DNA of 64,000 nucleotides, taken from the UHGV virus genome UHGV-1451962, one strand, 5' to 3'. A program made the position numbers and the translations under genes. The notes beneath the pieces are model-generated. The model was given only the letters and a program-made list of their open reading frames with translations. It searched no databases and was not told the origin of the DNA. Below are positions 1-61,726 of the stretch, one piece after another. Positions within the stretch are counted from its first letter, which is position 1, and each line of letters opens with the position of its first letter. Origin of the DNA: a virus.

Positions 1-65
1 CCTTAGAAGTTATTTTTTCAATGGAAATAAAGAAGATTAAGGGGAAGGAGTTTACGAATTAAAGA

Positions 66-170
66 GATGTTTTATTAAAATATATTTTAAAATAGAGAAA
101 AAAATAATCTAAAATATAGATGTTTTATTAAAATATATTTTAAAATAGAGAAGTTTTATTAAAATAGAGA
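66..170. repeat. direct repeats, 33-bp unit x2 plus truncated third copy
   Basis: 'gatgttttattaaaatatattttaaaatagaga' at 66-98 and 119-151; partial copy 'agttttattaaaatagaga' at 152-170. Confidence 0.85.
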
Positions 171-200
171 AGTGCTCTGCGCAACACTTGTCTACCCATT

Positions 201-266
201 ATCATCTTCAATTCTCATTTATCATCTTCAATTCTCATTTATCATCTTCAATTCTCATTTATCATT
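201..266. repeat. tandem 20-bp repeat, ~3.3 copies (iteron-like)
   Basis: 'atcatcttcaattctcattt' at 201-220, 221-240, 241-260, then partial 'atcatt'. Confidence 0.9.
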
Positions 267-272
267 ATTCCC

Positions 273-300
273 CTGTAAAAGGGGTTATCCCCTTTTACAG
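273..300 (-). terminator. stem-loop at 3' end of the 295..843 gene (possible terminator)
   Basis: perfect 12-bp stem ctgtaaaagggg/ccccttttacag with 4-nt loop; no clean U-tract, so function uncertain. Confidence 0.3.
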
Positions 301-843
301 TAGAGAGTTCAAAAACTTATTAATTCTTTCTGCATCATCATCAATCTTGTTACTAAAAGCCTTAGCAACAGAGAAAAGCTTATTCACCTTATCCAATTCC
401 TTAGTCATGCTTTCAGCCAAAAGATTGATACTATCATCATCAAGACTAATCTCATCAAGCATAGGACGCATAGCAGGAGCAATCTGATAAAGACCCTCAA
501 TCAAAAGAATAATAAAATCCTCAGTAGTAATCTTACCATTACTCAAATGAACAAGAGCATTATTAATTTTTACATGCAGATTACCAAAAATGAAATCTCT
601 ATCACCTTCAACAGGAGTCTTCACCAACCAAAAACTCTTCTTCTTATTCTGCTCTGCCTTAAAAGTAGACTCCGCGGCATTGGCTCGCTCAGAGATATAC
701 TTCATAATCTCATCCATAGACTTGCCCTTGCGCAGCTCATCCATAATATAATCCTCAAACTTCATAGTAGTCTTGCAGTTACAAGAGGAGTTAAGCTCGG
801 CAGTAGAGGCGTTACAGCAATCATTAACCTTATAAGTAGACAT
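295..843 (-). CDS. hypothetical protein
   Basis: 182-aa ORF; promoter/RBS cassette immediately upstream (881-909, RBS complement of 'ttcctttcc' at ~853-861). Confidence 0.5.
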   Translation of the reverse strand: MSTYKVNDCCNASTAELNSSCNCKTTMKFEDYIMDELRKGKSMDEIMKYISERANAAESTFKAEQNKKKSFWLVKTPVEGDRDFIFGNLHVKINNALVHLSNGKITTEDFIILLIEGLYQIAPAMRPMLDEISLDDDSINLLAESMTKELDKVNKLFSVAKAFSNKIDDDAERINKFLNSLL

Positions 844-880
844 AAATTTTTAATTCCTTTCCTTTTGTTTTTCTATATAT

Positions 881-909
881 ATTATATAATAATTTTTTAA
901 TATTTTCAA
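881..909 (-). promoter_or_regulatory. sigma-A-type promoter (TTGAAA-N17-TATAAT) for the 295..843 gene
   Basis: minus-strand -35 is complement of 'tttcaa' 904-909; -10 is complement of 'attata' 881-886; 17-nt spacer. Confidence 0.5.
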
Positions 910-1016
910 TTGCGGATATAGGGGAGTAGTTATTTTGAATTTTCATTTGGAAAAAATTGGGGAATGGAACTCACAATTTCTGAAGGGAAAATTGAAAGTG
1001 AGAGAGAAAAGTTAAT

Positions 1017-1089
1017 GGAATAATAAATCGACCGAAGGTCGATTTATTATTCCTTAGTAAATAAGTCATCCGAAGGATGACTTATTTAC
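1017..1089. other. two adjacent perfect stem-loops with GAA loops
   Basis: 1017-1053: 17-bp stem ggaataataaatcgacc/ggtcgatttattattcc, loop gaa; 1057-1089: 15-bp stem gtaaataagtcatcc/ggatgacttatttac, loop gaa. Confidence 0.85.
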
Positions 1090-1124
1090 GTTATGTAAGT
1101 AGAGTGGTGAAGTAAAATAATACT

Positions 1125-1403
1125 TAAAAAATTAACCTATTTTTTCTGTATGTGGTTATATATATTGGTATACATTTTTTTGAGGTTAATTTTAAATCCA
1201 GATTTTAACGTATTATTATCAATGAGTATGAGATCTTTGCTTCTTTTTTGTACCTATGGTTGAATATAACCATATACAATTTTTTGACGCAAAAATTTTA
1301 TGTTCATTGGTAAACAGTATATTAAAGCTGATTTAAAATTAACCTCAAAAAAATGTATACCAATATATATAACCACATACAGAAAAAATAGGTTAATTTT
1401 TTA
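1125..1403. repeat. 74-bp perfect inverted repeat (arms 1125-1198 and 1330-1403) flanking a 131-bp spacer
   Basis: reverse complement of 1330-1403 equals 1125-1198 base for base (checked manually); spacer 1199-1329 is AT-rich and non-coding. Confidence 0.9.
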
Positions 1404-1495
1404 GGTTATTTTTGTTAAATCTTCCTTATCCAGAATTTATATTTTAATAGTAGAATAAAAATTCTACAAATTTTATTTTAAGGAGATTTAACAAA

Positions 1496-2128
1496 ATGAT
1501 AATTACAAGAAGAAAACTTAGTGAAAAATATTCTATATCGCATAATGTTTGGGATAGAAAACATGATGAATTAATGCTTCATCTTCAAGAATATATGGAT
1601 ATAACTGAATTCAAATCCAATAAAGGCAGATATACCTATGAAATCAAAGGCGAAATGCCTGATGTAATCCCTTCATTAAGAACTGCTCAAACTAAACAAA
1701 AGAAAAAAGATTATGAGAAGTTCACTATTACCGCTTTAGGTACTGAATTCAAACCCAATAGTAAGAGCAAAATCGCCAGAGATGCTATTGCGGATTTTGG
1801 ATATGAAAAATATAAGCATAAATCTCAACGCTTTGTGGCCGAACAATACATCAAAGAGCCATTTAATAAATATGGCATTAGCGATGGAAACCAGTATTGG
1901 TGTTTTTATTCAACCTATGAGGTTATGGATGAAACCATCGTTACTGAGTGGCGCAAAATCCTCTCTGAAGAGAAGATTGGTGAAGAAGAAGCAGCCAATG
2001 CTTTTTACCGCCAAGCGCAAGGAGAAGATATCTCTACCGAACTGCAGTTCTACAAGAACGCCATGAATAGATTTAAAGAAAAGTATAATGATATACCGGT
2101 TCTAGTTAAAAAGTGGAAGTGTAAATAA
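1496..2128 (+). CDS. hypothetical protein
   Basis: 210-aa ORF preceded by 'aaggagatttaacaaaATG'; terminator hairpin downstream at 2228-2286. Confidence 0.55.
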   Translation: MIITRRKLSEKYSISHNVWDRKHDELMLHLQEYMDITEFKSNKGRYTYEIKGEMPDVIPSLRTAQTKQKKKDYEKFTITALGTEFKPNSKSKIARDAIADFGYEKYKHKSQRFVAEQYIKEPFNKYGISDGNQYWCFYSTYEVMDETIVTEWRKILSEEKIGEEEAANAFYRQAQGEDISTELQFYKNAMNRFKEKYNDIPVLVKKWKCK

Positions 2129-2227
2129 CACTTCCACTTTCAACAAACCGAGCGGGCATATGTGTTTCTCTTTCTTTTTCCTTTTCCTTTTGTTTATATA
2201 AATATTATATAATAATTTTAATTATTA

Positions 2228-2286
2228 ATCAACTTGACTTTTATTTTTTCTTTTGTTTTTTGAAAAGTCAAGTTGATTTTTTTTTA
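2228..2286 (+). terminator. rho-independent terminator-like hairpin
   Basis: 15-bp stem atcaacttgactttt/aaaagtcaagttgat with 20-nt loop, followed by a T-run. Confidence 0.5.
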
Positions 2287-2511
2287 TACCTTAAATTTTT
2301 AAAAAGTCAAATGCGGACTTTGACTTGACAAATTAAAAAAAATTTTTTTCCGAGCGGGTGAGCCACTTTCGGGAAAAACCCCGGCCATATGAAGGGTCGC
2401 TAGAAGTCTAGAAAAATCGCCATATGCTAGTGGAAAGGGGATTTCGGGCTGTGACCACTGTCCACAGCCCGCCACTCCTTATATATAGTATACCATAAAA
2501 CCAGCCTTATG

Positions 2512-2712
2512 TCAATCGGCATTTTCACCAAAAGTAAATTTTATTTTATTACTAGGACACTTCACGCACAAATACACATCTCCATTTTCTTCTTTTTGAA
2601 TATAAAAAGTAAATAACTGGCCGGTTTCCATTCCTAGATAATCTCTTAACTTAGAAGGGATAACTAATCGACCAGTCGAGTCCAGCTTTCTGGCAAATTC
2701 AGTTTTCAACAT
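2512..2712 (-). CDS. small AbrB/SpoVT-like DNA-binding protein
   Basis: 'GRLVIPSKLRDYLGMETGQ' resembles the AbrB swapped-hairpin N-domain motif (GRVVIP..LR..LGI). Confidence 0.45.
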   Translation of the reverse strand: MLKTEFARKLDSTGRLVIPSKLRDYLGMETGQLFTFYIQKEENGDVYLCVKCPSNKIKFTFGENAD

Positions 2713-2995
2713 ATCCAGATATTTTTTTCTGATGACCTAGACGTGCGAAATTTCAACCCTAAAACGGGCCTTTCTATCTCTAAAATCTTTAAAGTAATTT
2801 ACCACTCACAAGGCATCTTAGAACAGAAATCACGCATAACACAAACTTCGCAATTATCCTACTTTAGGCAGTATTCAATAATCACCGCAAGTACCTTTAA
2901 TAATTCACAGGTCATTAGAAAAGCTCCTTTCCTTAATTTCTATATATATTATAACATAATTTTTTAGAAAAAACAAAAAAGAACTCTGAGTATTC

Positions 2996-3463
2996 TCAGA
3001 GTTCTTTAGTTTCTGTCACAAAGTATTTGGCATTGTAATCCACCAGAATTTTCTTAACTTGGCTACTCTCCATTTGTGTGGCACAATAAACATTAAAAAT
3101 TGAATATTTACCTACATTTTCAATATAATTATGCGGAATTGAGTTTAGTCTTTCGTGAAGTTGTTTTGTAAATTCACCGGGGACAGTCACCTCAATTCGC
3201 CACAATTTTTCTTTTCTTCCTTTTGCTTCCGCCCACTTAACCGCATACACGCCAACCAGATTACAGCCAAAGGTAACTAATACCTTCTGCCACAGAGGGA
3301 AATCCGCGACTGTGTAAATAAGAACTATATTATAATAACCATAGTACAGAGCAGAAATCATGCTTGCGGAAAATGGTGTACCATTAATAGTTACAATGCT
3401 TTTGATTGTCGAAAAAACCACATTGGCAATGGAGAGACCAATAAATAACAAGAGTAAAGACAA
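2996..3463 (-). CDS. hypothetical membrane protein
   Basis: 155 aa with several hydrophobic segments (LLLLFIGLSIANVVF..., ALYYGYYNIVLIYTV...). Confidence 0.45.
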   Translation of the reverse strand: MSLLLLFIGLSIANVVFSTIKSIVTINGTPFSASMISALYYGYYNIVLIYTVADFPLWQKVLVTFGCNLVGVYAVKWAEAKGRKEKLWRIEVTVPGEFTKQLHERLNSIPHNYIENVGKYSIFNVYCATQMESSQVKKILVDYNAKYFVTETKEL

Positions 3464-3652
3464 TTAAATACCCGCCTTTCTGCACATCACAAAGAACTCT
3501 TCCAGAGGAACCCAAGCCCCATCAATAGTAATCAATGGCCACCAATCTCCTTCACATTCTTTGTCATAGTCCATGAAGTAGTCATAGGCTTTCTGCAAAG
3601 AATCAAACTTCGCAAAATCGCCGTTGTAGCGGTCAGTAATTTTGATAATCAT
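3464..3652 (-). CDS. hypothetical protein
   Basis: 62-aa ORF abutting the neighbouring ORFs in the same orientation. Confidence 0.35.
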   Translation of the reverse strand: MIIKITDRYNGDFAKFDSLQKAYDYFMDYDKECEGDWWPLITIDGAWVPLEEFFVMCRKAGI

Positions 3653-4242
3653 TATTCTTCATCCTCCTTTTCCCAGCAAACAATATATTGTGAGTATTCA
3701 CCATTTGGTTTAAGAAATTGAACCTTATAGCCTGCTTCCTCAAGTATTTGAGTAATAATTTTTGTATCTTCTAGAAGATTAATAGTAGCAGCAAATTTTC
3801 CATCTTCTGCGGCACTTAGAAGATTAAACATAATTTGCCCAAGGGCTTCAGTGATTACTGTAGATCTTGCTTGTAGTGTTTTATCAAGCATCCCTTTAGC
3901 ATCCAACCAGTTCGTAGGTTTTCTAATTTCTATTTCTACCTTCCTTTCTCTATGGAAGAGGGCTTTTCGGCCCTCTTCTTCTTCCATAACTACACCAGCA
4001 AGAATTAAAGTGTTGCAGATGCACTGCCAAGCATAAAGACCCATATTTTGGGGAATGGCTTCCCAAATCTCAGGCCGCAACTTCTTCAGGCCAGTTAGAA
4101 GCATACCGCCCCAGTCGCCACCGCAAGCAACGCACTTGTCCAAAAACTGGCCAAAGGTAATGTTTAACGGCTCACAGCTATCAATAGCTTCAAGAACATC
4201 CTCACCCCAGTTCTTTGCGATGAAGTCTCTGCGTTCATTCAT
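3652..4242 (-). CDS. hypothetical protein
   Basis: 196-aa ORF; promoter/RBS cassette upstream at ~4250-4300. Confidence 0.5.
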   Translation of the reverse strand: MNERRDFIAKNWGEDVLEAIDSCEPLNITFGQFLDKCVACGGDWGGMLLTGLKKLRPEIWEAIPQNMGLYAWQCICNTLILAGVVMEEEEGRKALFHRERKVEIEIRKPTNWLDAKGMLDKTLQARSTVITEALGQIMFNLLSAAEDGKFAATINLLEDTKIITQILEEAGYKVQFLKPNGEYSQYIVCWEKEDEE

Positions 4243-4560
4243 ACTATCAACCTCTTTCCTTAATTTCTGTATTCATTATAGCATCTTTGCCCTGGTTTGT
4301 CAAGACCTTTTTTATTTTTTTTGAAATTTTTAAATCCCCTTTCCTTTTGTGATTATATAATAACATAATTTTGGGAAAATGTCAATAAGTAAAATTGTAC
4401 AAATCAAAAGCAGAAAAATTGTGGAAAATGTATATTGACACGAATTCGGGCCACATCCACCAAGCGCGGCCCGTCGAGTTTTGTTATTGCTTTACTTTTG
4501 CTTATAACAAGTATAGGGATAAAAAAAGGATAGTGGCTATTAACCACTATCCTTTAATAA

Positions 4561-4812
4561 TCAAACATCTTCAATTACGATATTTTCGCCGATCTCTGCT
4601 AAGTTTTGCAAAATATCTGACGCTTCTCCCACTTTTGCGGCATCAATGGTTTCGTATTTGCCAATATAACTATTAGCAGACATCACCTCCCAAATTTGAT
4701 TAAGAATGTCAGAGGCTTGCTCAAGACGATCAATTTCTTCTTGGGATAAGCGAACCTCGCATTGCTTTTCAATAACAATCATGTTCTCTTCCTCCTTATA
4801 GTTCGATCTCAT
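4561..4812 (-). CDS. hypothetical protein
   Basis: 83-aa acidic ORF. Confidence 0.4.
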   Translation of the reverse strand: MRSNYKEEENMIVIEKQCEVRLSQEEIDRLEQASDILNQIWEVMSANSYIGKYETIDAAKVGEASDILQNLAEIGENIVIEDV

Positions 4813-5140
4813 AGGTTTTGCGGATAGTAACCTTTACTTTCTTGGGTTTTTGTTTACAGCAAAATCTGTCATTGCGGACAAATTCGCCGATAGAAGATTC
4901 CTGCCATGCTGCACGATTCTTATCCTCATATCGCAAAGTCGAATACTTAGACAAAGGCAGATGCCAATCATAGACAAACTTAGCGGATTTCGGCATAGTA
5001 AACTTAGGTGAACGCTTATAATTTCTGGTATGCTCTTGCTGTCTCCGGGCTAAATCATTAGTAGTGCCTATTTTGAGAATGTAGTTGCCTTCTACATCAA
5101 AATAGTGACCTACATACAAATACTCTTTCTTTTGTTGCAT
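4796..5140 (-). CDS. hypothetical protein
   Basis: 114-aa ORF. Confidence 0.45.
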   Translation of the reverse strand: MQQKKEYLYVGHYFDVEGNYILKIGTTNDLARRQQEHTRNYKRSPKFTMPKSAKFVYDWHLPLSKYSTLRYEDKNRAAWQESSIGEFVRNDRFCCKQKPKKVKVTIRKTYEIEL

Positions 5141-5197
5141 TTACATCACCTTTTTCGTCAAAATTAGCTCTTTTTTAAGTGAAAAGGGCCAAAAACT

Positions 5198-5587
5198 TTA
5201 CTTTTTGGCCCTTTTCTGAACTAAAGTCAACTCAAAGGCGTTATTATCAACAGAAAAAGCAATCTGTCGCTCAGGATTTGCAATTTTTACATCACAAATC
5301 CCCAAAGATTCAAGAAAACCTGCAAGTTCCGCAATCAAATTTGCTTTAGTGGGGTTCTCTTTTCTTTCTCTTTTAATAGGGGTCTTGCGGTCATGCTTCT
5401 TAGTATGTTGCCCGGTAATAGTATACTTCTTTGCTACCTTTTGTTGTTCCTCGGTCAAATCCCATTCATGCGGGATGCCTTTATCAACCTCGCAGTCTGC
5501 CTTATAGATTTCTACTGCTTTTTCATAACTGCACTTGATGCCAGCTTGGATTCTTGCGATTGCTTCTTTTGCTTTGTCCAAAAACAT
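5198..5587 (-). CDS. hypothetical basic protein, paralog of 9346..9708
   Basis: shares spaced motifs with the 9346..9708 product (D.G...L.EEQ.KV.KK ... NPER.I ... F..TL). Confidence 0.5.
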   Translation of the reverse strand: MFLDKAKEAIARIQAGIKCSYEKAVEIYKADCEVDKGIPHEWDLTEEQQKVAKKYTITGQHTKKHDRKTPIKRERKENPTKANLIAELAGFLESLGICDVKIANPERQIAFSVDNNAFELTLVQKRAKK

Positions 5588-5611
5588 ACCTCCCCTCTAG
5601 GGAAGAGGGCC

Positions 5612-6034
5612 TTAGCCCTCTTCCTCTTCTACCACGGCCTGCGCCTTGTAGAAATGGGCAATACCCTTGTGGGTATCCTTGTAAGCAATACCCTCAGAGA
5701 CAAGAGCCTTGCACATAGGGGCGATACGCTGGGGAGTCAAATCTTCCAGTTCAGGAATGGCCTTGCGGAGCATTGCAATGGTCATACCATCTTCGGTCAA
5801 CTGCTCGGCAATCAGAGCCTTAAAATGCTCATTCTCAGTCTGGCGGGCAGTCTGCTTGCGGGAATTAGAACCCTTCTTAGCATCCAGCAGGCGAATTTCA
5901 TTGGAGAGGAAATCGGTCAGACCCTCAAAGTCAAAACCTTCGTCCTCACGGCCTTCGCACAGTTCCACCAGCTCAATCAGAGACTGGAAACGCTCACGCT
6001 TAGTAATTCTCTTGTTAGTATTTTCCATAAACAC
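5612..6034 (-). CDS. hypothetical protein, paralog of 9768..10124
   Basis: C-terminal region 'TARQTENEHFKALIAEQL...IPELEDLTPQRIAPMCKALVSEGIAYKDTHKGIAHFY' parallels 'TATQTENARLIEVIADTL...IPELNGFTPQKVGPMLKKLVETGRATRDTNKGKAYY'. Confidence 0.5.
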   Translation of the reverse strand: MFMENTNKRITKRERFQSLIELVELCEGREDEGFDFEGLTDFLSNEIRLLDAKKGSNSRKQTARQTENEHFKALIAEQLTEDGMTIAMLRKAIPELEDLTPQRIAPMCKALVSEGIAYKDTHKGIAHFYKAQAVVEEEEG

Positions 6035-6369
6035 CTATCTCGCTTTTGGTTTTTAAGAGTTTGTCCTTCTCTTGATTACATGCTTATTATAGCATGTTTC
6101 TTGGGGTTTGTCAAGAGGTTTCGCAAACTTTTCACAAGATTTACGGCTTCCAGAGCATGTTGGGCAATAACAATTACCACATGATATAAGACTTACCACT
6201 TGATGTATTTCGTTTACTTCCTATACTTTCTCACAGGTCGGCCGCCCTAGGATTTCTTGGGCTACTTCCTCCTGACATTATTTATTATATCAGATTTCAC
6301 CCAAATTGCAATAGGCAAATTGTACAAAAAGCGGGATTTTCCTCAAATAAATTTTGTGCAGTTTAACTC

Positions 6370-6398
6370 TTGACAAATTTTGTGCCGCGTGGTATAAT
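6370..6398 (+). promoter_or_regulatory. near-consensus promoter on the plus strand, opposite to the surrounding genes
   Basis: TTGACA 6370-6375, 17-nt spacer, TGgTATAAT with TATAAT at 6393-6398. Confidence 0.5.
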
Positions 6399-6404
6399 TG
6401 AAAT

Positions 6405-6513
6405 TTCGGCGCTCCACAGTCGTGGGCGCCGCGCCATTGTATCATAAAGCTGCGGTTTTGTCAATAGGCAAAATGTACAAAAAAATGAGGGAAAAATCCC
6501 TCATTTCCTTTTC
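6405..6513 (+). ncRNA. candidate small RNA / antisense transcript
   Basis: downstream of promoter 6370-6398: GC-rich hairpin 'cggcgctccacagtcgtgggcgccg', no credible ORF, then hairpin 'atgagggaaaaatccctcat' (6486-6505) followed by a T-rich stretch. Confidence 0.25.
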
Positions 6514-6777
6514 CACTTTGTCAAGATCAGCTTTCAGACTGTCAAGTTCCTGCTCTTTGTCCATAGTTTTTAATTCAAGCGCAGTCTCTAAATAACGTAA
6601 GTAATTCTGATAGTCATCGGTGCTATACTCAGAAAAAGTGAACCCTTTTCCTCTGAACTTATCTCTTACACGAGTGACACTTTTATGACATTGAACACGT
6701 TCTTCATACACAGCATAACTATCAGTTCCTTTCTTAATTTCTGTATTTATTATAGCGTCTTTGCTTTGAATCGTCAA
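6442..6777 (-). CDS. doubtful ORF (true product probably shorter)
   Basis: ORF runs through its own promoter/RBS cassette (6725-6795) and uses a TTG start; first in-frame ATG is far downstream. Confidence 0.2.
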   Translation of the reverse strand: MTIQSKDAIINTEIKKGTDSYAVYEERVQCHKSVTRVRDKFRGKGFTFSEYSTDDYQNYLRYLETALELKTMDKEQELDSLKADLDKVEKEMRDFSLIFLYILPIDKTAAL

Positions 6778-6805
6778 TAGACAAATTGCACAAAGTGGAA
6801 GATTT

Positions 6806-7339
6806 TTATAACTTCATTCCATTTGTTTGAAATGCTTTAGCTACTTTATCAAAGCAATCTTCCATTTTAAGAATTTCCTGCTTCTTACTTTCTATCTGAA
6901 AAAGAAGATTTACATAAACTTCCTGAAGGTATTCCCGATACCCACTAGCATTGAAGGCGAAAGTATCTCGATAACAAATAGTAATATCACTTCTATTATA
7001 GTGGATGCCTAATTCTTCCCCACCATTAGCCGCGATCAGAGCTTCCTTTGCCGCCACCAGCAGCTCTCTGTATTCCTTATACTTCATAAGAAGCTCGCCG
7101 GCACGGTTTGTTACATAAGGAGCAGTTTCTCTGCATCTAGGCCCATTTGTATCATAGACCGGTGCTTTACCAACCACTTTGATGATATTGTGGTTGAAGA
7201 GAGTTTCCGCCTTAGAGCGTCCCTTACCACGAGCCGCATCATATTTATCAGAGGTGAAGGGTTTATCCCCGAACAGTTTAACAACCTGAGCAGCACCTTC
7301 CAGAACGCTATTGCAATTTTTGATAGAGAACATAATCAT
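6806..7339 (-). CDS. hypothetical protein
   Basis: ORF track start at 7342 is TTG; ATG at 7339 sits 5 nt after the RBS (complement of 'cctttcct'); promoter at 7366-7394. Confidence 0.55.
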   Translation of the reverse strand: MIMFSIKNCNSVLEGAAQVVKLFGDKPFTSDKYDAARGKGRSKAETLFNHNIIKVVGKAPVYDTNGPRCRETAPYVTNRAGELLMKYKEYRELLVAAKEALIAANGGEELGIHYNRSDITICYRDTFAFNASGYREYLQEVYVNLLFQIESKKQEILKMEDCFDKVAKAFQTNGMKL

Positions 7340-7365
7340 CAATTCCTTTCCTGTTTTCTGTTGTT

Positions 7366-7394
7366 ATTATATCATGCTTTTGCTTACTTGTCAA
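7366..7394 (-). promoter_or_regulatory. sigma-A-type promoter with extended -10 (TTGACA-N17-TGaTATAAT)
   Basis: -35 is complement of 'tgtcaa' 7389-7394; -10 is complement of 'attata' 7366-7371; TG at 7373-7374. Confidence 0.6.
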
Positions 7395-7611
7395 GAGATT
7401 TTATCAAATTGCTTGTATCTGTTTCAGTAAGAATTTTTTCCATCTCTTTGACAGATAAGCTGTCTACTTTTCTCTGGAAATCTTTGAGGAGTAAATCATC
7501 CCCACAGATTTCTTCCTCAATATCTACCCACTCTTTGTAAACATGGAGTAGTAAATATTCATCAGGTTCCATCAAAGAACCGCAGACAATGTAGCCATCA
7601 TCCAAAAGCAA
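7384..7611 (-). CDS. hypothetical protein
   Basis: 75-aa ORF. Confidence 0.35.
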   Translation of the reverse strand: MLLDDGYIVCGSLMEPDEYLLLHVYKEWVDIEEEICGDDLLLKDFQRKVDSLSVKEMEKILTETDTSNLIKSLDK

Positions 7612-7986
7612 ACCAGCGTGGACAACCCCTTCAAGGTCGAGAAATAATACCTACTTTGTCATTTGCAAAACTCCCTTTTGTTTTATTTTATCAGAGCGGC
7701 GCCTACTCTGACAGCTTTCTTGTTGTTTATTACTTTGGAGCAATAGAAAAAGCTAAGAAAATCTCCGCATCACTATATGGTTTTTATTTCGTTCATGTAA
7801 AACAACAGTGCAAACAAAATTCTGTAATAATTGGGTTAGCATGGCGGCGGGTGCCTGGTAATATCTATCATTCGCTTTACTCCTTTTTATTTATTTATTT
7901 GCCACTAAAACACTTTATCACCTCCCTTGACTGTACCTGTATTATATCACAGAAGAAAAGCTTTGTCAAGCCTTTTTTGCAATTTT

Positions 7987-8385
7987 TTAATCCTTAATAA
8001 GTTCTTTGGGAATAGTCCAACCAACGGCTCGGCAATAAGCAATAACCATACCAACCGCGGGAATGAAAGTGTCATTTGTTGTGGCTGTTGCTTTTCCAGT
8101 CAGGCGATGATTATTGCTGATAACTTCGCAAACAGTAGTTCTGCCCTCAATACTGAACTTTGCAGAAGTGCCATATAACATATGAGCATTGTCCTCTAAC
8201 CACTTCTGAGCAATAGAAGCCTTGCTTTCTGCGGATTGAACATACTTACGGAGAATAATTCCATCCGAACTGGTGCAAATTTCCAGTGGGTCTCCCTCCT
8301 GAATGTGCATGTTGCGGCGGATCTCCTTGGGGATGACCACCCGGCCCAGGTCGTCGATGCGGCGCACGATACCAGTAGTTTTCAT
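7987..8385 (-). CDS. AbrB-family transition-state-regulator-like DNA-binding protein
   Basis: N-terminus 'MKTTGIVRRIDDLGRVVIPKEIRRNMHIQEGDPLEI...GIILRKY' closely matches the AbrB N-domain (MKSTGIVRKVDELGRVVIPIELRRTLGI...IILKKY). Confidence 0.75.
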   Translation of the reverse strand: MKTTGIVRRIDDLGRVVIPKEIRRNMHIQEGDPLEICTSSDGIILRKYVQSAESKASIAQKWLEDNAHMLYGTSAKFSIEGRTTVCEVISNNHRLTGKATATTNDTFIPAVGMVIAYCRAVGWTIPKELIKD

Positions 8386-8452
8386 ATTTTTTTACTTCCT
8401 TTCTTTTACTGTATTTGTATTATACCATACAGTCCGGTCTTTGTCAAGCCTT

Positions 8453-9097
8453 TTATCTATCAAAACCGCTAAAATCCAAGATGATTGGGCGGTCATTTTT
8501 GTAACCAATGTTGGATTCGTGCAGGTCATTGATTCTGTTCTCAATGACAAACTCGCAAAGAGTTTTGCAAAGTCTTTTGCCATAGATAACAAGAGCCATC
8601 TTAGCCCAAAGAGGGTCTAAGTTTCTTGCATAGCGCCCATTAGGTGCCGCTTTCTTGAAACACTTGCCCATAAGCTGCGCTTTCTGGTCACTTGCGGTTT
8701 TGACCTTAGCCTTGTACTTCTTAAAGGTTTGATAGGAACAGCCACAAACCGCAAAGTCAATTTTCTCTTGCTTGATGAAGTTAATCCCATCTATCGTGCA
8801 GAAAAGCTCGGTCTTGGGGAAGAACATGCCCAAACCTGCTTTAACAGCTTTATTGTACATGTCAACCTCTTTAAGAGCTTCGTCATCAGTAAACTCATCA
8901 GGGTCAGAGTATGTCCACTTGATAACAAAGTCGGCTTTGTGAGGGATGAGACAAATTTTGCTGGAACCATAATCTATAGCGGCTTCACTTCCAAGCTTGA
9001 TTTCTCTCATTCTGCTCTGAATTTCCCAATCGGTCATGGAAGGGTCAATCCTTAACTCTTCAAGCCAATGAAGAACAGTCTGTTCCATCTTTGTCAT
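8453..9097 (-). CDS. hypothetical protein
   Basis: strong RBS (complement of 'ctcctccc' 9103-9110) precedes ATG at 9097 (MTKMEQ...); ORF track start 9166 is probably too far upstream. Confidence 0.5.
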   Translation of the reverse strand: MTKMEQTVLHWLEELRIDPSMTDWEIQSRMREIKLGSEAAIDYGSSKICLIPHKADFVIKWTYSDPDEFTDDEALKEVDMYNKAVKAGLGMFFPKTELFCTIDGINFIKQEKIDFAVCGCSYQTFKKYKAKVKTASDQKAQLMGKCFKKAAPNGRYARNLDPLWAKMALVIYGKRLCKTLCEFVIENRINDLHESNIGYKNDRPIILDFSGFDR

Positions 9098-9123
9098 GTT
9101 ATCTCCTCCCTTACTGTGATTAT

Positions 9124-9152
9124 AGTATAACACGGCAGGTCTTATTTGTCTA
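9124..9152 (-). promoter_or_regulatory. promoter (TAGACA-N17-TGtTATACT)
   Basis: read on the minus strand from 9152 down to 9124. Confidence 0.4.
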
Positions 9153-9211
9153 TTGGCGAAATGCACAAATTCGGAATTTTTGTCTGCCTAGTTTTTATGC
9201 ACTTTTGCCCA

Positions 9212-9240
9212 TTGACAAAAGTCGGATTACCTGGTATAAT
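9212..9240 (+). promoter_or_regulatory. near-consensus promoter on the plus strand, opposite to the surrounding genes
   Basis: TTGACA 9212-9217, 17-nt spacer, TGgTATAAT with TATAAT at 9235-9240. Confidence 0.5.
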
Positions 9241-9246
9241 TGAAAT

Positions 9247-9351
9247 GCGGCAGCGCTTGACCATGCGCGGGCCGCCAAACATTTACCATTGAGAAGTATT
9301 GGGCAAAAAAGAAAACCGGCCTATAAAAATAAGCCGGTTTTGTTATTATTT
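9247..9351 (+). ncRNA. candidate small RNA
   Basis: GC-rich hairpin 'gcggcagcgcttgaccatgcgcgggccgcc', no ORF, ends at bidirectional terminator hairpin 9312-9341 (aaaaccggc/gccggtttt) plus T-run. Confidence 0.25.
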
Positions 9352-9708
9352 TCTAGGAGCGCTTAATGTAATTTTGAAACGTCTTTCATTAAAAACTATC
9401 TCAATTTCTCGCTCTGGGTTATTGATGGTAGTTTCAATTTCAAGTTGTTCAAGAGATTCCGCAATAATCTCAATCAAGCGATGTTTGTCATTGTCAACCT
9501 TGCGCTGTCGGGGAGCATTCATAGTATATTTGCCTTTCTCTTTGCCGGATAACCGCATTTTCTTTTCTACTTTCTTTTGTTCATCAGTAAGTGGGAAAAG
9601 GTCTGCACCTTTATCTATTGCTTCATCATCAGCAATAACTGCCAAAGCTTGTTTTCTATCAAGGTCTAACACCTTCTGAAGATGTTTAACCCTAGCTTCA
9701 TCTATCAT
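9346..9708 (-). CDS. hypothetical basic protein, paralog of 5198..5587
   Basis: 120-aa ORF; see paralog motifs. Confidence 0.5.
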   Translation of the reverse strand: MIDEARVKHLQKVLDLDRKQALAVIADDEAIDKGADLFPLTDEQKKVEKKMRLSGKEKGKYTMNAPRQRKVDNDKHRLIEIIAESLEQLEIETTINNPEREIEIVFNERRFKITLSAPRK

Positions 9709-9732
9709 TAAACACCATCCTTTTTGAGAAAA

Positions 9733-9757
9733 TAAAGAGGGGCATTAAGCCCCTCTT
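9733..9757 (-). terminator. intergenic hairpin between 9768..10124 and 9346..9708
   Basis: stem aaagaggggc/gcccctcttt with 5-nt loop. Confidence 0.4.
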
Positions 9758-9767
9758 TATTTAATTA

Positions 9768-10124
9768 TTACACCATAGTGTAGTATGCCTTGCCCTTGTT
9801 GGTGTCACGAGTGGCTCGGCCAGTTTCAACCAGCTTCTTGAGCATGGGGCCAACCTTCTGAGGGGTAAAACCGTTCAGCTCAGGAATGGTCTTGGTAATG
9901 TCGGAAATGGTGAAAGCTTCGCCCTTGGGCAGAGTGTCAGCAATCACTTCAATCAGACGTGCGTTCTCAGTCTGAGTTGCAGTAGGCTTACCGCTACCAC
10001 GGCTCTTATTCTCCTGCTGATGAAGCAGAATCTCAATCTTGGCACGAACATCGGCAGGAATCTCGCAGTTGTCCAGAACATACTGAAGAGCGCCCTTGTT
10101 AGTAATCTTCTTCTCGTTAGTCAT
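9768..10124 (-). CDS. hypothetical protein, paralog of 5612..6034
   Basis: 118-aa ORF; see paralog motifs. Confidence 0.5.
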   Translation of the reverse strand: MTNEKKITNKGALQYVLDNCEIPADVRAKIEILLHQQENKSRGSGKPTATQTENARLIEVIADTLPKGEAFTISDITKTIPELNGFTPQKVGPMLKKLVETGRATRDTNKGKAYYTMV

Positions 10125-10233
10125 AATATCAATTCCTTTCTGTGCGGTAGGTCGCTACCCTAATTGTTAAGGAAGTGGGGAGGGTTTTCTCTCCCTCACT
10201 TCTCTTATATTATATCATTTTCCTTTTGTTTTG

Positions 10234-10941
10234 TCAAGCGGTTTTTTGATTTTCAAAAAGTTTTTTCCGCATTTTCTTCTTTTGCCGATAGCAGTAAATC
10301 ATAATCTCCCGCTCAATCCGCACATCGTCAAGACCTTTATGTTCTTCCTGAAAAGTGGGGTCTTTGATGATGAATCTATACAGATTTTCTGCTGTTGCTG
10401 AGAGTTTACCAGTTTTGGTTAAGAAACCGTGTTGTTCACAGAACCTTTTATAGGTAGGCATCTTTAGAATAACATCTCTTGCCATTTTGAGAGTATCCCA
10501 AATATCGGTACCATAGGGGAACCAATACCGATATTTACTCTTAGTAGTCCAGCGTTGAAGTAAATTCAATGCGTTCAGGTCGAATCTTGCATTGTGGGCG
10601 ACTACCTCTGTAATACCATATTCTGCCATGTCTGCAAGCATAGCTTGTCGAATCTGGTAAGTGTTAGCTATTTGTCGGATGCCCTGTCGAATATCTTCCA
10701 GATACTGGGGAATCTTTTCCGCATAATAGGCGGATTTCATAAGCTCACTTTCATCAAAGAAAATATCTCGATTAACAAAGGATTGTTCCTTGTAGATATT
10801 CCCTCTTGTATCCATAACACACCACCCGCAATCATAGACAAGAACTGAGGTCATGTCTAATCGGCCTTTTTGGTCAGTGATGGTGTTCGCTGTCTCAGTG
10901 TCCAGAAGCAGAACGTAATGTCTGCGCTTGTCAATGCTCAT
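10234..10941 (-). CDS. DnaQ-like (DEDDh) 3'-5' exonuclease
   Basis: Exo I motif 'LLLDTETAN' and Exo III motif 'VVAHNARFDLNAL'. Confidence 0.65.
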   Translation of the reverse strand: MSIDKRRHYVLLLDTETANTITDQKGRLDMTSVLVYDCGWCVMDTRGNIYKEQSFVNRDIFFDESELMKSAYYAEKIPQYLEDIRQGIRQIANTYQIRQAMLADMAEYGITEVVAHNARFDLNALNLLQRWTTKSKYRYWFPYGTDIWDTLKMARDVILKMPTYKRFCEQHGFLTKTGKLSATAENLYRFIIKDPTFQEEHKGLDDVRIEREIMIYCYRQKKKMRKKLFENQKTA

Positions 10942-10974
10942 GTTGCATCTACCTCTTCCTTAATTTCTGTACTT

Positions 10975-11003
10975 ATTATATCAGATTTTTTCTCATTTGT
11001 CAA
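10975..11003 (-). promoter_or_regulatory. sigma-A-type promoter with extended -10 (TTGACA-N17-TGaTATAAT)
   Basis: -35 is complement of 'tgtcaa' 10998-11003; -10 is complement of 'attata' 10975-10980; RBS complement of 'cctcttcc' 10953-10960. Confidence 0.6.
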
Positions 11004-11022
11004 GAACTTTTTGGCTCCCTGC

Positions 11023-11478
11023 TTAAAGCAGGGAAGCCAAGAAATCAATGATGTCACAAGTTTCAGGATTGACAGTTTCTCCCAAATGCCAACTGTCACG
11101 AACTTTCTTATTATCATCAATAAGAATTGCCTTAGATGCTTTTCTACGAACAGCATCCGCTTTAGTGGCTCCATACTTTAGACCATGAAAGTGGTCATAG
11201 GGGAAACCCCATTTCAAGAGCCAAGCCTTTTTAGCTTCTCGCACAGCCTTTGCATACTCAGGGCTGCTTTCTTTAGAAAGCCAAGTGATGATTGCAATCT
11301 CCCAACCAGCCTGTTTTAACTTGTTAATAAGCTCGTTAAGCTTATCCACGTCCCACATGGGTTTAGCTTCCAGGTAAGGGCTTGTATCTTCCTTCCGCAG
11401 CTTAGACAGCCAACCATTAACCCCATACAGGTCAGCAATAGTGCCGTCCATATCAAAAGCCAACATTTTGTCAGTCAT
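11023..11478 (-). CDS. HAD-superfamily phosphatase / nucleotidase-like protein
   Basis: HAD motif I 'FDMDGTIAD' near the N-terminus; start taken at the MTDK ATG (an in-frame TTG at ~11487 is also possible); ORF track start 11586 runs through the promoter. Confidence 0.55.
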   Translation of the reverse strand: MTDKMLAFDMDGTIADLYGVNGWLSKLRKEDTSPYLEAKPMWDVDKLNELINKLKQAGWEIAIITWLSKESSPEYAKAVREAKKAWLLKWGFPYDHFHGLKYGATKADAVRRKASKAILIDDNKKVRDSWHLGETVNPETCDIIDFLASLL

Positions 11479-11536
11479 AAGTGTCAACTTCTTTCCTTTA
11501 TTTCTATGGTAATTATACCACGGTAAGGCCCAAATG

Positions 11537-11722
11537 TCAAGCCTTAATTTCTTCAATGTCAAGAAGAATTTCACCAGTAGAATCATCTACCAAGTAATAC
11601 ATTGTAGTAGCATACTGAGCTAACCTATGAAAGAAATCCTCTGCCAATGAAAAGGAATCAAAAGGCCCGATAATTTCTTCATCGCCAACATGATAGATAG
11701 AATAAGTCTGCTTCATATGCAA
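11537..11722 (-). CDS. hypothetical protein
   Basis: 61-aa ORF. Confidence 0.3.
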   Translation of the reverse strand: MHMKQTYSIYHVGDEEIIGPFDSFSLAEDFFHRLAQYATTMYYLVDDSTGEILLDIEEIKA

Positions 11723-11731
11723 TACCTCCTA

Positions 11732-11889
11732 TCAAAAGATATGAATGAGAGTTTCATTCCCATTCTCTTCCAGATGACACTCATAGACAGAGCCTTTCTT
11801 GCGGGTTGCGTTCCGCATTGCGATACCCTTGTTATCAAAGTGTATCTGCCAACCATTGGGGAAAACTACCAGCCAGTCACGGTATTCGG
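11732..11889 (-). CDS. hypothetical small protein
   Basis: RBS (complement of 'ggcctccttttg') precedes 'MTEYRDW...'; the longer ORF-track version (to 12124) crosses promoter sequence. Confidence 0.35.
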
Positions 11890-12049
11890 TCATACTTTTG
11901 GCCTCCTTTTGTTTTCTGTAATTATTATAACAAAAATTTTTAAGAAATTCAATAATCAATTTTGATGATGTTTTGTCGCTATACTTTTTATAAACAAATG
12001 CCATTTCGGGATGAATACTTCCGGGTAAAATCACCAAACTTTCCTCTAA

Positions 12050-12115
12050 ATTTTTGTGCAATTTGCGCATTGACAGAATTTCGGCGCACACTGGGAGGTC
12101 ATGGTCGTGTGCGCG
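12050..12115 (+). other. third copy of the GC-rich hairpin element (cf. 6405-6440, 9247-9280)
   Basis: 'gaatttcggcgcacac...gtgtgcgcgccgccgc' shares the 'aatttcggcgc...gcgcc' core with the 6400 element. Confidence 0.3.
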
Positions 12116-12185
12116 CCGCCGCAATTATTATACCATACTTTTGCTTTGTTGTCAATAGATAAATTGAACAAAAAATTTTTATTTA

Positions 12186-12203
12186 TTTTTTTTTTTTTTT
12201 TTT
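12186..12203. repeat. 18-nt homopolymer T tract
   Basis: uninterrupted run of 18 T on the plus strand. Confidence 0.9.
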
Positions 12204-12250
12204 ACTGCTAGAAGCCTAGAAGTTTCATCATATAAGCATATAGCAAAAAT

Positions 12251-12273
12251 AAAAAGGGCCGCAAGGCCCTTTT
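12251..12273. terminator. bidirectional rho-independent terminator
   Basis: 'aaaaagggccgcaaggcccttttt': GC stem gggcc/ggccc, loop gcaa, flanked by A-run and T-run. Confidence 0.6.
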
Positions 12274-12570
12274 CACTTCCAAGTTTTTTCAAGTGGATTT
12301 TTGTTTATTTTACCGGAACCTTAATGGCCCACAAGCTTTCTAAACAGTCAAGCCCTATGTAAGACTCGCTCGCTTTTTCAAAAAGCTTTTTCTCCACTTC
12401 CTCCAAAGTCATGCAGAGATATTCTTCAAAGAAGTCAGGAGAAGCGTCTTTCTGTATCCTCGCAATCATCTCTTTTATTGTTGTTGCTTTGTCATAGGCT
12501 CATTACCATACTGGTCAGAAACTATAATGACGTAAGCATCTTTCTTTATAATAATCAACTCCTTTTCTTT

Positions 12571-12903
12571 TTACCACATGTCAACGTAGTGCTGTTTGTC
12601 ATTGGGATACTTGTGCTTAACAAGCGTGGCACATTCCTCATCATCGGTCGCAAGTCTGAGTTTGCTATCCACCAGAGCCACCAGCTCAGGAGCAGCTTCC
12701 TTGTAAAGAACTTCCAGCAGTTCTTTCAGAGCGCCTTTACCATAATAGCGGTAGTCCTCAGCAGTAATCTTCCAGACCATGATTTTCTCAGGGTCATAAC
12801 CGCAGTTGGGATAGTAGAGAGTCAAGTCTCCATCGTGAAGCACATAAGCGCTTTCATAGTAGGTTGCGGTGTACTGACTGTCGAATAGTTCCTTGTTAGT
12901 CAT
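12571..12903 (-). CDS. hypothetical protein
   Basis: 110-aa ORF with promoter/RBS cassette upstream. Confidence 0.55.
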   Translation of the reverse strand: MTNKELFDSQYTATYYESAYVLHDGDLTLYYPNCGYDPEKIMVWKITAEDYRYYGKGALKELLEVLYKEAAPELVALVDSKLRLATDDEECATLVKHKYPNDKQHYVDMW

Positions 12904-12934
12904 CTTTTGTTTCCCCTTTTTTTATCTTGATTAT

Positions 12935-12963
12935 ATAATACCATAATTTTGAGAAAACGTCAA
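12935..12963 (-). promoter_or_regulatory. promoter (TTGACG-N17-TATTAT)
   Basis: almost identical to the promoter upstream of 3652..4242 ('ttttcYcaaaattatgKtattatataatca'). Confidence 0.5.
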
Positions 12964-13054
12964 TAAGTAAAAATGCACAAATTAAGAATAAAAATTTGTA
13001 CAATACAAACAAAAGAAAAAGGAAGGCCGCAAAACCTTCCTTTTTCACTGCTGT

Positions 13055-13420
13055 TTAGAACAAATCTTGAAGCTGTTGAATAGCTTCATCAATATTGCAC
13101 CAGTTACCAGTGTGTTCATTGAGCACCAAGAGGGCTTCTTCTCCCGGAGTAAGAGAAGGAATTTTACAGTTGAAGCTAATGAAATAGCGCTTGAGCAATT
13201 CAACGGCTTCTTTATTACCATCGCACAAGATAGCAATAATAGGTGCAGGATTAGCTTTAAGGTTGAGCTTGACTTCGCCGAGCTTATCATACAGCTTGAA
13301 GCTATCCTCGCAACGCTTCGCCATTTCTTCCATCTCATGCAAGTTGCAGCTGTCATAGTCCTCAAAAACCTCACCGCAATACTCACAGAAGTAGACTGTC
13401 TTTTTCAACATAAAAATCAT
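13055..13420 (-). CDS. hypothetical Cys-containing (zinc-binding-like) protein
   Basis: 'CEYCGEVFEDYDSCNLHE' near the N-terminus. Confidence 0.45.
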   Translation of the reverse strand: MIFMLKKTVYFCEYCGEVFEDYDSCNLHEMEEMAKRCEDSFKLYDKLGEVKLNLKANPAPIIAILCDGNKEAVELLKRYFISFNCKIPSLTPGEEALLVLNEHTGNWCNIDEAIQQLQDLF

Positions 13421-13477
13421 CCTTTCTTTTATTATGGTCTTATTATACCACAGACTAAGCTTCTTGTCAAGACTTTT

Positions 13478-13650
13478 TTACAAACATTCAACCACTTCCC
13501 AAATCTGCTGATACTCTTCATAAGAGTTGGCGAAATCATTCTTACTGGCTTCATCGCGGCCCTCTTCTTTAATCCATTCCTTCCACTTGTCAAGGATCGC
13601 CTTGTTAGCTTTGTCCATCTTAACACCAATGATCTTCTTGATGTTCTTCA
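13478..13650 (-). CDS. hypothetical small protein
   Basis: RBS (complement of 'cccctttcctttt') precedes ATG of 'MKNIKKIIG...'; ORF track start 13726 overlaps the promoter. Confidence 0.4.
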
Positions 13651-13893
13651 TTTGTTTTATCCCCTTTCCTTTTGTAATTATATAATAACACACTTGCCGC
13701 AATAGGTCAATAGGCATACTGCACAATTCGGGATCCCAATTCTCTCTCTAAATTTAGCTATTTTGACTATTGATTTTGAGCAGACTTTGTGGTATACTGA
13801 TTCGGAAAGTTGCCTTGTAAAACGAAGACATTCGTTTATAACAAGTATGTTAAACAAAAGGAAAGAGATAAGCTAAGCTTACCTCTTCTCCTA

Positions 13894-14109
13894 TCATACT
13901 ACTTCATACTCATCATACTTCTTAGCCAAGACTAATACTTCCTGATATATCTTCTTTGGTATAATGTAAGCCCTCCAACGCAGGTCGCCATTAGGTTTGA
14001 AAGAAGTCTTTCTCCAACCAAAGAAGCATCTCCATAGAAAGCTTTTGCCCTCACAATACATTTCAATAAAATCTATCATACATTCATTGTCTATCCAGTA
14101 TTTTTTCAT
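13894..14109 (-). CDS. hypothetical protein
   Basis: 71-aa ORF. Confidence 0.35.
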   Translation of the reverse strand: MKKYWIDNECMIDFIEMYCEGKSFLWRCFFGWRKTSFKPNGDLRWRAYIIPKKIYQEVLVLAKKYDEYEVV

Positions 14110-14309
14110 ACTTCTCCAACCTCTCTTTTATTTTTAACCTTACAAAGTTCAATCTTGATTGCCTGACCATCAGGAAAGACTAAGCACTTGCGCAAACCAG
14201 AAGGAAAGCGAAACCATTGAACTTTAGCCCACTGCCAACTTTCTCCCTGGTAGTTGTTTCGCCATGTCTTAACAGGTGAGCAAGCATAGAACTCAAAAGT
14301 CTTTTTCAT
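14106..14309 (-). CDS. hypothetical protein
   Basis: 67-aa ORF overlapping the next gene start by 4 nt (coupled arrangement). Confidence 0.35.
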   Translation of the reverse strand: MKKTFEFYACSPVKTWRNNYQGESWQWAKVQWFRFPSGLRKCLVFPDGQAIKIELCKVKNKREVGEV

Positions 14310-14415
14310 TTGATCTTTCCTCCTTTTACTATCTATAGTATACCATACCTTAACCAGAATGTCAATACCTTTTTCATTTATTTATTTATAAAATAAAAAA
14401 GAAAAATGGTTCTGC

Positions 14416-14763
14416 TCATTTAAGAGCAGAACCATTCCAGAAGCCAAGAATCATGTCATCATAGACAAAACCTGGTGTAGCATTGTCATCAATAGCAATG
14501 AGAACGTCCTCACCTTTCACAAGGCCATCATCATCAATGGCGTACAGGTTGCCATCACGCATGTCTTTCAATGTCACACATCCATCATCATGAGTTGCAG
14601 TAACAGTAGCGCGAACCAGACGAACAGTATTCATACCATAGTGGATGCTGTTTGTTGCACAGTATCTGGCATTTTCAGCAGGAGTGCTAAGAGCGCAAGC
14701 AGAAGTAGTGAGAGCAGAGATAACGATTGCCAGAACAGCGATGATAGAGAAGAACTTTTTCAT
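14416..14763 (-). CDS. secreted protein / possible lipoprotein
   Basis: N-terminal signal peptide 'MKKFFSIIAVLAIVISALTTSACA' with a lipobox-like L-T-T-S-A-C. Confidence 0.5.
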   Translation of the reverse strand: MKKFFSIIAVLAIVISALTTSACALSTPAENARYCATNSIHYGMNTVRLVRATVTATHDDGCVTLKDMRDGNLYAIDDDGLVKGEDVLIAIDDNATPGFVYDDMILGFWNGSALK

Positions 14764-15104
14764 AGGTCATTGACCCCTTTCCTTAATTTCTGTATTTATT
14801 ATACCATCAAGACAGCCTTTTGTCTATTGACACATTGAACAAAAGAAAAAGAAATTAAAAGTTCTTCTTTGTGCATTTTGCTGAAGAATAATTTTGTTTA
14901 ATTCGCCTATTGACAAGACCATTTTTCTTTTGATTAATGAATAGTTGTTTACAGAAGATACTGTTTGATGGGGCCTTTGTGGGGTTAATGGATATTTACC
15001 AATGAAAGATAGTTTAATGGTTTGGCGTACTCCGGGGTAGTTTTCGGGAAAAAAATTATATTTGTTATTAAAAACCATTTGGCCTGGACACTTCTCTCTC
15101 TAAG

Positions 15105-16535: not shown

Positions 16536-16537
16536 TT

Positions 16538-17714: not shown

Positions 17715-17727
17715 TTATTTCTCTCCT

Positions 17728-61693: not shown

Positions 61694-61726
61694 CGCGATA
61701 TTTTAGAATTTAACCAAATAAAAAAA

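Follow-up and report, generated by a model that had tools for sequence, protein, structure and literature searches.

A 74-nt perfect inverted repeat in a gut siphophage genome forms the outer part of a three-unit, palindrome-like region of probable control function

Introduction

Why should a non-coding, AT-rich stretch of a phage genome carry two 74-nt arms that are exact reverse complements of each other? We address this question for a locus near the left end of the window, the 64,000-nt stretch of virus genome UHGV-1451962 that was analysed here. Such a repeat may be read as an invertible switch, a mobile element, a structure-forming site such as a replication origin, an RNA element, or a set of static control units. 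We weigh these readings against the sequence of the locus and of its relatives.

The window belongs to a long-tailed phage of ~137 kb that encodes a tape-measure protein of 2,871 aa and has portal, protease and sigma-like genes. Strong Shine-Dalgarno sequences are evident in the window, and a tRNA/tmRNA scan of it found none. Megablast and blastn searches with the region against 50,697 deposited phage genomes gave no match and hence no close relative. By portal identity, the nearest were a 12-kb human-faecal phage record (53.5%), phAss-1 (38%) and ~140-kb Enterococcus siphophages (30%). phAss-1 is an uncultured gut phage; siphovirus morphology has been given for its group, and hosts in the class Clostridia have been discussed (PMC10607447).

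Results

The inverted repeat is authentic and stands alone in the window

Exact reverse complementarity over 74 nt, first noticed in a sequence-only reading of the window, was confirmed between the following two arms.

1125..1198, plus strand: left arm (L unit), TAAAAAATTAACCTATTTTTTCTGTAT-GTGGTTATATATATTGGT-ATACATTTTTTTGAGGTTAATTTTAAATC, the exact reverse complement of 1330-1403
1330..1403, minus strand: right arm (R unit), gene-proximal, its centre 129.5 nt upstream of the ATG at 1496

When mismatches were allowed, the arms extended to 1115-1198 and 1330-1413 (84 nt, 95%), with 131 nt between them. The G+C content of the repeat region was 22%. Two arm matches were found in the 64 kb, and the number expected from 100 shuffles was 0. 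This was by far the longest inverted repeat of the window; the others were ordinary terminator-sized hairpins. Folded alone as single-stranded DNA, the L unit formed a weak hairpin (z -1.05), and the R unit alone likewise formed a weak local hairpin (z -1.9).

The same ~137-kb gut siphophage was present in three assemblies, namely the window and two ENA contigs from other samples (L002, 137,671 bp; L003, 137,488 bp), and the repeat was found in each of them. Arms and spacer of L002 and L003 were identical to those of the window. Over 7 kb, all differences between L002 and the window amounted to one 20-bp tandem-repeat unit and two substitutions. In the k=31 Logan assembly of run ERR1137165, contigs broke at window positions 1154 and 1374, i.e., 30 nt (k-1) inside each arm, which is the effect that a true 74-nt repeat is expected to have on a de Bruijn graph. 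The identical copies in L002 and L003, together with this break pattern, ruled out an assembly artefact. The practical effect of the 74-bp repeat is that short-k assemblies break at the locus.

The repeat lies between divergent genes, one of which has a structured leader

The divergent context described in the sequence-only reading was also confirmed. The repeat sits within a 650-bp non-coding stretch (844-1495), between a minus-strand gene for a 182-aa protein (295-843) on the left and a plus-strand gene for a 210-aa protein (1496-2128) on the right. The latter is the sole plus-strand gene of the early region. The features around the repeat are as follows.

881..909, minus strand: sigma-70-type promoter match TTGAAA-17-TATAAT for the 182-aa gene; the block recurs at 2193 and 2937
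1017..1089, minus strand: two perfect AT-rich hairpins of 17 and 15 bp (1017-1053 and 1057-1089), terminator-like for leftward transcription
1404..1505, plus strand: leader RNA hairpin directly after the right arm, in which the Shine-Dalgarno sequence and the start codon of the 210-aa gene are paired with 1404-1425
1496..2128, plus strand: gene for an orphan protein of 210 aa that has a winged-helix-like domain at its N-terminus and is a candidate for binding the units

The twin hairpins lie between the promoter match of the left gene and the repeat, and their centres read CC-GAA-GG. Their stems were conserved in relatives; their loops varied (GAA, AAA or TTT).

The predicted fold of the leader RNA was strong in the window (-26.4 kcal/mol, z -5.4) and in the homologous leader of a close relative, L008 (z -7.0). 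The leader pairing was perfect over 18 bp in L008 and in a second relative, L010, and a similar structure was found in L068. The predicted pairing with the ribosome-binding site implies translational control of the 210-aa gene. Because the leader hairpin starts at 1404, directly after the arm, transcription must start in or before the R unit.

The spacer is self-complementary and holds a third unit

The spacer has the length of 131 bp given for it in the sequence-only reading, but it is not neutral filler, since it is 64% self-complementary and contains a third unit. Identity of the spacer to its own reverse complement was 64% (z 4.2 against shuffles). The three parts of the whole element are as follows.

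1115..1413, no strand: full quasi-palindrome, with 84-nt arms at 95% and a self-complementary centre; dyad centre at 1264/1265
1199..1329, no strand: spacer, kept among close relatives, holding the M unit
1243..1290, plus strand: M unit, CTTTTTTGTACC-TATGGTTGAATATAACCATA-TACAATTTTTTGACGC, a diverged third copy with a hairpin (1255-1274) on the dyad centre

The hairpin of the M unit, TATGGTT-GAATAT-AACCATA, had a z of -4.8 and shares the dyad centre with the arms. The arm core motif TGTATRTGGTTATAT occurred in the window at 1147 (+), 1263 (-; 1263-1278) and 1366 (-) only. The distances between the centres of L and M and of M and R were 103 and 102 bp, roughly ten helical turns; the unit spacing in L008, L010 and L034 was 103-104 bp. 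In each unit of the window, a T (or A) run flanks the core on both sides, and the local stem of these units is thereby broken. The whole element spans ~300 bp with perfect outer parts, and its single-stranded DNA fold reached -90.6 kcal/mol (z -21.6). These findings demonstrated that the perfect repeat is the outer part of a ~300-bp palindrome-like region with three related units, probably a control region.

Close relatives carry the units but not the long repeat

The close relatives compared were contigs that encode a 210-aa protein 88-90% identical to that of the window (L008/L009, L010/L011, L031-33 and L034-36). The intergenic region was collinear in them, and the twin hairpins, the centre and the leader were well conserved. 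The long inverted repeat was absent from every close relative compared. Identity between L and the reverse complement of R was 100% in the window, 69% in L008, 68% in L010 and 62% in L034. At the R position, L008 and L010 carried a strong self-contained hairpin (z -9.4 and -10.2, respectively) with a stem of 20-24 bp and a loop of 18-24 nt.

The asymmetric centre GTGGTTATATATA at R faced the gene in L010 and L034 and had the opposite orientation in L008, L031 and the window; its orientation was constant within each lineage (2-3 samples each). L034 had all three units in direct orientation, with neither a strong local hairpin at R nor a long-range one. L031 had a fusion of the M and R units, consistent with unequal recombination between units. 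The fusion in L031 and the direct copies in L034 indicate that the units recombine. The units thus evolve in concert, through inversion, fusion and conversion, and the repeat of the window is one outcome of this process. On these comparisons, the perfect long-range repeat is a lineage-specific homogenisation of two inverted units. The simplest history for the perfect identity would be a recent gene conversion, or template switching during replication, between L and R in inverted register.

A self-contained palindrome accompanies the gene in distant relatives

The distant relatives comprised viral and metagenome loci (about 22 distinct sequences; 37-68% protein identity). They carried a self-contained palindrome of 50-64 bp located 60-180 bp upstream of the gene. 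Gene tables showed that the palindrome accompanies the gene whatever the upstream neighbour or its orientation. The stem was 13-32 bp long, in most cases with 0-2 mismatches. The centre was mostly 16-24 nt and AT- or TATA-rich; L012 and L040 were palindromic right to the centre. The conserved core TTTTTGTGTAT-N18-ATACACAAAAA, or a close variant of it, was found in most of the 22 relatives. The palindrome ends a few tens of nucleotides before the leader hairpin that sequesters the ribosome-binding site. Relative to this family the window phage is an outlier, with its local stems broken.

In the inner stem (10-20 nt from the centre), an arm was paired at 90% of positions with its own partner and at 51% with the arm of another phage. 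In the outer stem (21-28 nt from the centre), the corresponding values were 90% and 37 +/- 3%, and the outer 5' arms of different phages had a mutual identity of only 37%. These pairing rates show compensatory covariation around a conserved inner core. When IMG/VR was searched with the H1 loop motif from the clade at 60% identity, nothing came up beyond the two contigs already known.

We also noted where the contigs of relatives end. Those of many relatives (L015, L017, L021, L027, L028, L060 and L064-L068) ended 0.3-1 kb upstream of the 210-aa gene, and the break points lay in or near palindromes, tandem repeats or long TA-rich low-complexity stretches. The locus upstream of this gene is a recurrent assembly breakpoint across the family.

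The downstream gene belongs to an orphan family

The 210-aa protein had 304 homologues at E <= 0.001 in a large protein database, and the family comprised 180 clusters at 50% identity. The homologues were about 210-260 aa long, and all were without a Pfam domain. No relatives were found among the 185,579 bacterial and archaeal species-representative genomes of GTDB, from which the family looks strictly viral and non-integrating; tblastn of the protein against phage records also gave none. A winged-helix-like fold is the sole sign of DNA binding in the protein and makes it the candidate binder of the units. The element is a marker for the control region of this orphan family, which is found in large uncultured gut phages.

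The units are possible promoters and operators

Most units can be parsed, in one direction or in both, as TTGnnn followed after 17-19 bp by a TATA-rich centre. A perfect TTGACG-17-TATAAT was present in L055, where the 5' arm holds the -35 element and the loop holds the -10 element. When 20 hairpins were scored as sigma-A promoters in both directions, the mean equalled that of shuffled controls. We hypothesise from these motifs that the units are promoters. As to operators, conserved inverted half-sites were found at fixed spacing near the gene, i.e., the arrangement of a dyad-symmetric operator.

Of the mismatches in the stems, counted by eye, two would be G-T on the plus strand, as many would be so on the minus strand, and a further two were non-wobble. 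This lack of bias, together with the flips in orientation of GTGGTTATATATA, favours action as duplex DNA over action as RNA.

Discussion

The static element that the sequence-only reading had kept as a fallback is the direction in which the evidence points. Our preferred reading, which we hold with about even confidence, is that the units are static control units (promoter core plus operator) of the winged-helix gene and that L and R have been homogenised in this lineage. The sequence comparisons themselves show the anatomy of the region, its conservation, the covariation of the stems, the lineage-specific homogenisation and the absence of signatures of inversion or mobility. We infer the biochemical function of the units, and likewise infer protein binding, promoter activity and autoregulation.

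The proposed mechanism is as follows. Across the wider family the gene-proximal unit is a self-contained palindrome, with the conserved core and lineage-specific complementary outer stems. In this lineage L and R have become identical in inverted orientation, presumably through gene conversion or template switching; each local hairpin was made weaker by this homogenisation, and a single long-range repeat without mismatches arose. The units would act as static, orientation-independent control sites in double-stranded DNA; they would set rightward transcription of the winged-helix gene and probably also that of a short leftward RNA terminating at the twin hairpins (1089-1017). A dimeric protein would bind the dyad-symmetric cores of the three units, phased at ten helical turns, and the simplest choice of binder would be the product of the winged-helix gene itself.

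The preferred model leaves one observation unexplained: the lineage-specific outer stems stay complementary. This complementarity keeps a structure-dependent role alive. The palindromes might serve replication, as an origin or a priming site, or might be a promoter that depends on cruciforms or on supercoiling. They would then be recognised as extruded cruciforms or single-strand folds, and the 74-bp long-range pairing of the window would take the place of the local hairpins of relatives. We consider such a role rather doubtful. The covarying outer stems fit it, and so do the AT-rich centres (the palindromes of L012 and L040 are perfect to the centre), the iteron-like tandem repeats 1 kb leftward (65-265) and the contigs of relatives that often break nearby. 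In the window, moreover, the loss of local hairpins goes together with the gain of a long-range one of very high stability. Repeat-rich non-coding regions are typical of the origins of Gram-positive phages, and three phased repeat units with 22% G+C are compatible with an origin. However, DnaA boxes with at most one mismatch were absent from 1100-1420 (with TTATCCAGA at 1426 as the exception), and replication genes were not found in the scanned neighbouring ORFs; nor were packaging genes. The sequence-only reading had suggested a cruciform-forming origin or packaging element, and either may still apply. The element goes with the 210-aa gene whatever the gene context, and at R the L034 lineage has no hairpin, local or long-range. 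With a centre of 131 bp, a cruciform is also unlikely to be extruded from duplex DNA.

It is conceivable, but we would not expect it, that the covarying 50-64-bp AT-rich palindrome with its invariant core is a previously undescribed structure-dependent element, such as a cruciform- or hairpin-dependent promoter or an origin, recognised by the orphan winged-helix protein. This reading would apply throughout a widespread family of virulent gut phages with genomes of 130-150 kb. If it were true, the window would be a natural experiment in which 74-bp pairing at long range has taken over from the local hairpins, so that selection keeps pairing rather than sequence. Phages of Firmicutes-like hosts would then provide a new and tractable example of control or initiation that depends on DNA structure.

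Two motif candidates that bear on replication were tried and rejected. TGTGGTTA, likened to TGTGGATAA as a DnaA box, fails the consensus. An HUH or rolling-circle Rep, suggested by TAATATTAT in some loops, was dismissed because no HUH motif was seen in the alignment consensus and the fold search gave nothing Rep-like.

Action as RNA is improbable. Both arms, or the local hairpin in relatives, would be transcribed into a long double-stranded RNA that serves as an RNase III site, an attenuator or terminator, or an antisense regulator of the downstream gene. An A-run or no run at all follows the stem in L012, L015, L016, L020, L029 and L055; the loop orientation flips between lineages; the stem mismatches show no G-U strand bias; and no Rfam match was found on 1-4000 (E <= 1). 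The consensus promoter within the hairpin of L055 would, in addition, leave the 5' arm untranscribed. As a separate matter, a general terminator role was rejected because the T-run after the hairpin is inconsistent, being present in about half of the relatives only. A scan of the arms revealed no terminator-like site.

The invertible switch proposed in the sequence-only reading is not supported, and we give it a very slim chance. Recombination between the arms would flip the 131-bp centre and redirect a promoter inside it. Perfect 74-bp inverted repeats are indeed recombinogenic, and the conserved centre has divergent genes on either side. However, the window, L002 and L003 share one spacer orientation, as far as assemblies tell (a rare minority orientation is possible); one long assembly is a MEGAHIT contig named k119, whose k-mer was probably longer than the arm and would resolve the orientation. 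The close relatives keep the centre and its orientation, yet are without the long repeat, and since the centre is quasi-symmetric, a flip would change little. The 20 neighbouring ORFs scanned (295-18327 and 60051-63998) contained no Resolvase or Phage_integrase domain; over 5 kb leftward in L002, the called genes encode proteins of 33-94 aa and one 240-aa Metallophos protein. The locus has the flanking inverted repeats of an inverton (74-nt arms, 131-nt centre); neither dual orientation in the three assemblies nor a recombinase in the scanned ORFs was found.

A miniature inverted-repeat transposable element in the intergenic region, another of the earlier suggestions, has the small size and terminal inverted repeats of the locus in its favour and is nevertheless rejected as having virtually no chance of being correct: a search for a target-site duplication flanking 1125 and 1403 found none, the flanks (AAAATAATACT on the left, GGTTATTTTTG on the right) showing no direct duplication; the element is single-copy, with no further copies in the 64-kb window, in INPHARED (no match of the arms to other phage genomes in 50,697 records) or in IMG/VR (no match in an exact arm-core search); and relatives are homologous and collinear at both arm positions, with no empty site seen.

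The comparison of relatives illustrates concerted evolution of repeated palindromic control units, and a striking perfect inverted repeat need not mean a switch or a transposon.

Among known systems, the closest functional analogue documented would be the p4 sites of phage phi29. Several p4 sites (5'-CTTTTT-15 bp-AAAATG-3') lie between promoters A2c/A2b and A3 (PMC3100819). As in the p4 region, the locus belongs to a Firmicutes-type phage and has several phased imperfect palindromes with T-run/A-run outer half-sites; it is AT-rich and lies between oppositely transcribed genes, and its duplex sites would be expected to bend or loop DNA. In contrast to the p4 sites, the half-sites here are ~30 bp apart rather than 15, the palindromes are 50-64 bp long with covarying outer stems, and the candidate binder is an unrelated 210-aa winged-helix protein.

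In symmetric bidirectional bacterial promoters, overlapping -10 elements on opposite strands give divergent starts. Like them, the units have a symmetric, TATA-rich centre that is flanked on each side, at 17-19 bp, by TTGnnn-like hexamers; a leader starts just past one arm, and hairpins of terminator type lie past the other. However, promoter scores here equal those of shuffles, and the complementarity exceeds what two -35 elements need.

A looser analogue is the injection-stop region of phage T5, which contains repeats, palindromes and one 131-bp 'IR-spacer-IR'; its palindromes and repeats are conserved while neighbouring genes vary (bioRxiv 10.1101/866236). Both are found in large siphophages, in a long repeat-packed non-coding region among small early genes. 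The locus differs from that of T5 in having no DnaA boxes, no sequence similarity to it, and an element tied to one specific downstream gene. 

The HSV origins oriL and oriS are large AT-centred palindromes. They resemble the locus in that a long AT-centred palindrome with conserved inverted arm motifs lies between divergent genes. Unlike the locus, they belong to an unrelated type of virus; the centre here is 131 bp with imperfect symmetry, and neither an origin-binding protein nor replication genes were found among the scanned neighbouring ORFs.

Other features of the window

Iteron-like tandem repeats were found at 65-265, downstream of the 182-aa gene and ~1 kb left of the palindrome. In this array the 20-bp unit TTATCATCTTCAATTCTCAT occurs in 3.3 copies, a 35-bp unit occurs twice and TTAAAATAGAGAAGT three times. 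L002 (3500-3770) has one 20-bp copy fewer than the window, and the end of the L003 contig falls within the array. The contig of one relative (L015, 1-100) starts within a comparable repeat, AAAATAGGAGTTGTGCTGT, in the corresponding place. The array could be an origin, a terminus or merely an assembly breakpoint.

A second intergenic repeat set lies at 2227-2330. It contains a perfect hairpin of 16 bp whose loop is 20 nt long (AATCAACTTGACTTTT...AAAAGTCAAGTTGATT); more copies of AAAAGTCAA and TTGACTT come after this hairpin, and the set adjoins a gene for an AbrB/MazE-like 66-aa protein (2512-2712). It looks like another operator-type array.

Two further promoter matches were found on the minus strand. 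The first (2515-2487), TTGACA-17-TATACT with an upstream TG, is the best sigma-70-type match in the first 3.2 kb. It aims into a G+C-rich stretch of ~180 nt (2290-2515) without a convincing ORF or an Rfam match, whose fold was only moderately above shuffles (z -2.2); this stretch may encode a minus-strand non-coding RNA. The second (2232-2204, within 2160-2232), TTGATT-17-TATAAT, is antisense into the 3' end of the 210-aa gene and carries a 5'-leader block that it shares with other early genes. Downstream of it there are only a 17-codon ORF and a shared bidirectional terminator hairpin (2110-2140).

The minus-strand genes at 4000-14000 have a G+C content of 38-42%, compared with 26-33% in most of the window, and numerous overlapping mechanical ORFs occur there on both strands.

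A diversity-generating retroelement is located within 60051-63998. Its reverse transcriptase (phrog_1423, RVT_1) is encoded at 60051-61307 on the minus strand. The 108-nt template repeat (TR) lies at 61586-61693, and the variable repeat (VR) at 62384-62491, at the 3' end of the gene for a 542-aa Big_3-domain protein. Between TR and VR, 21 of the 22 mismatches fall on template adenines.
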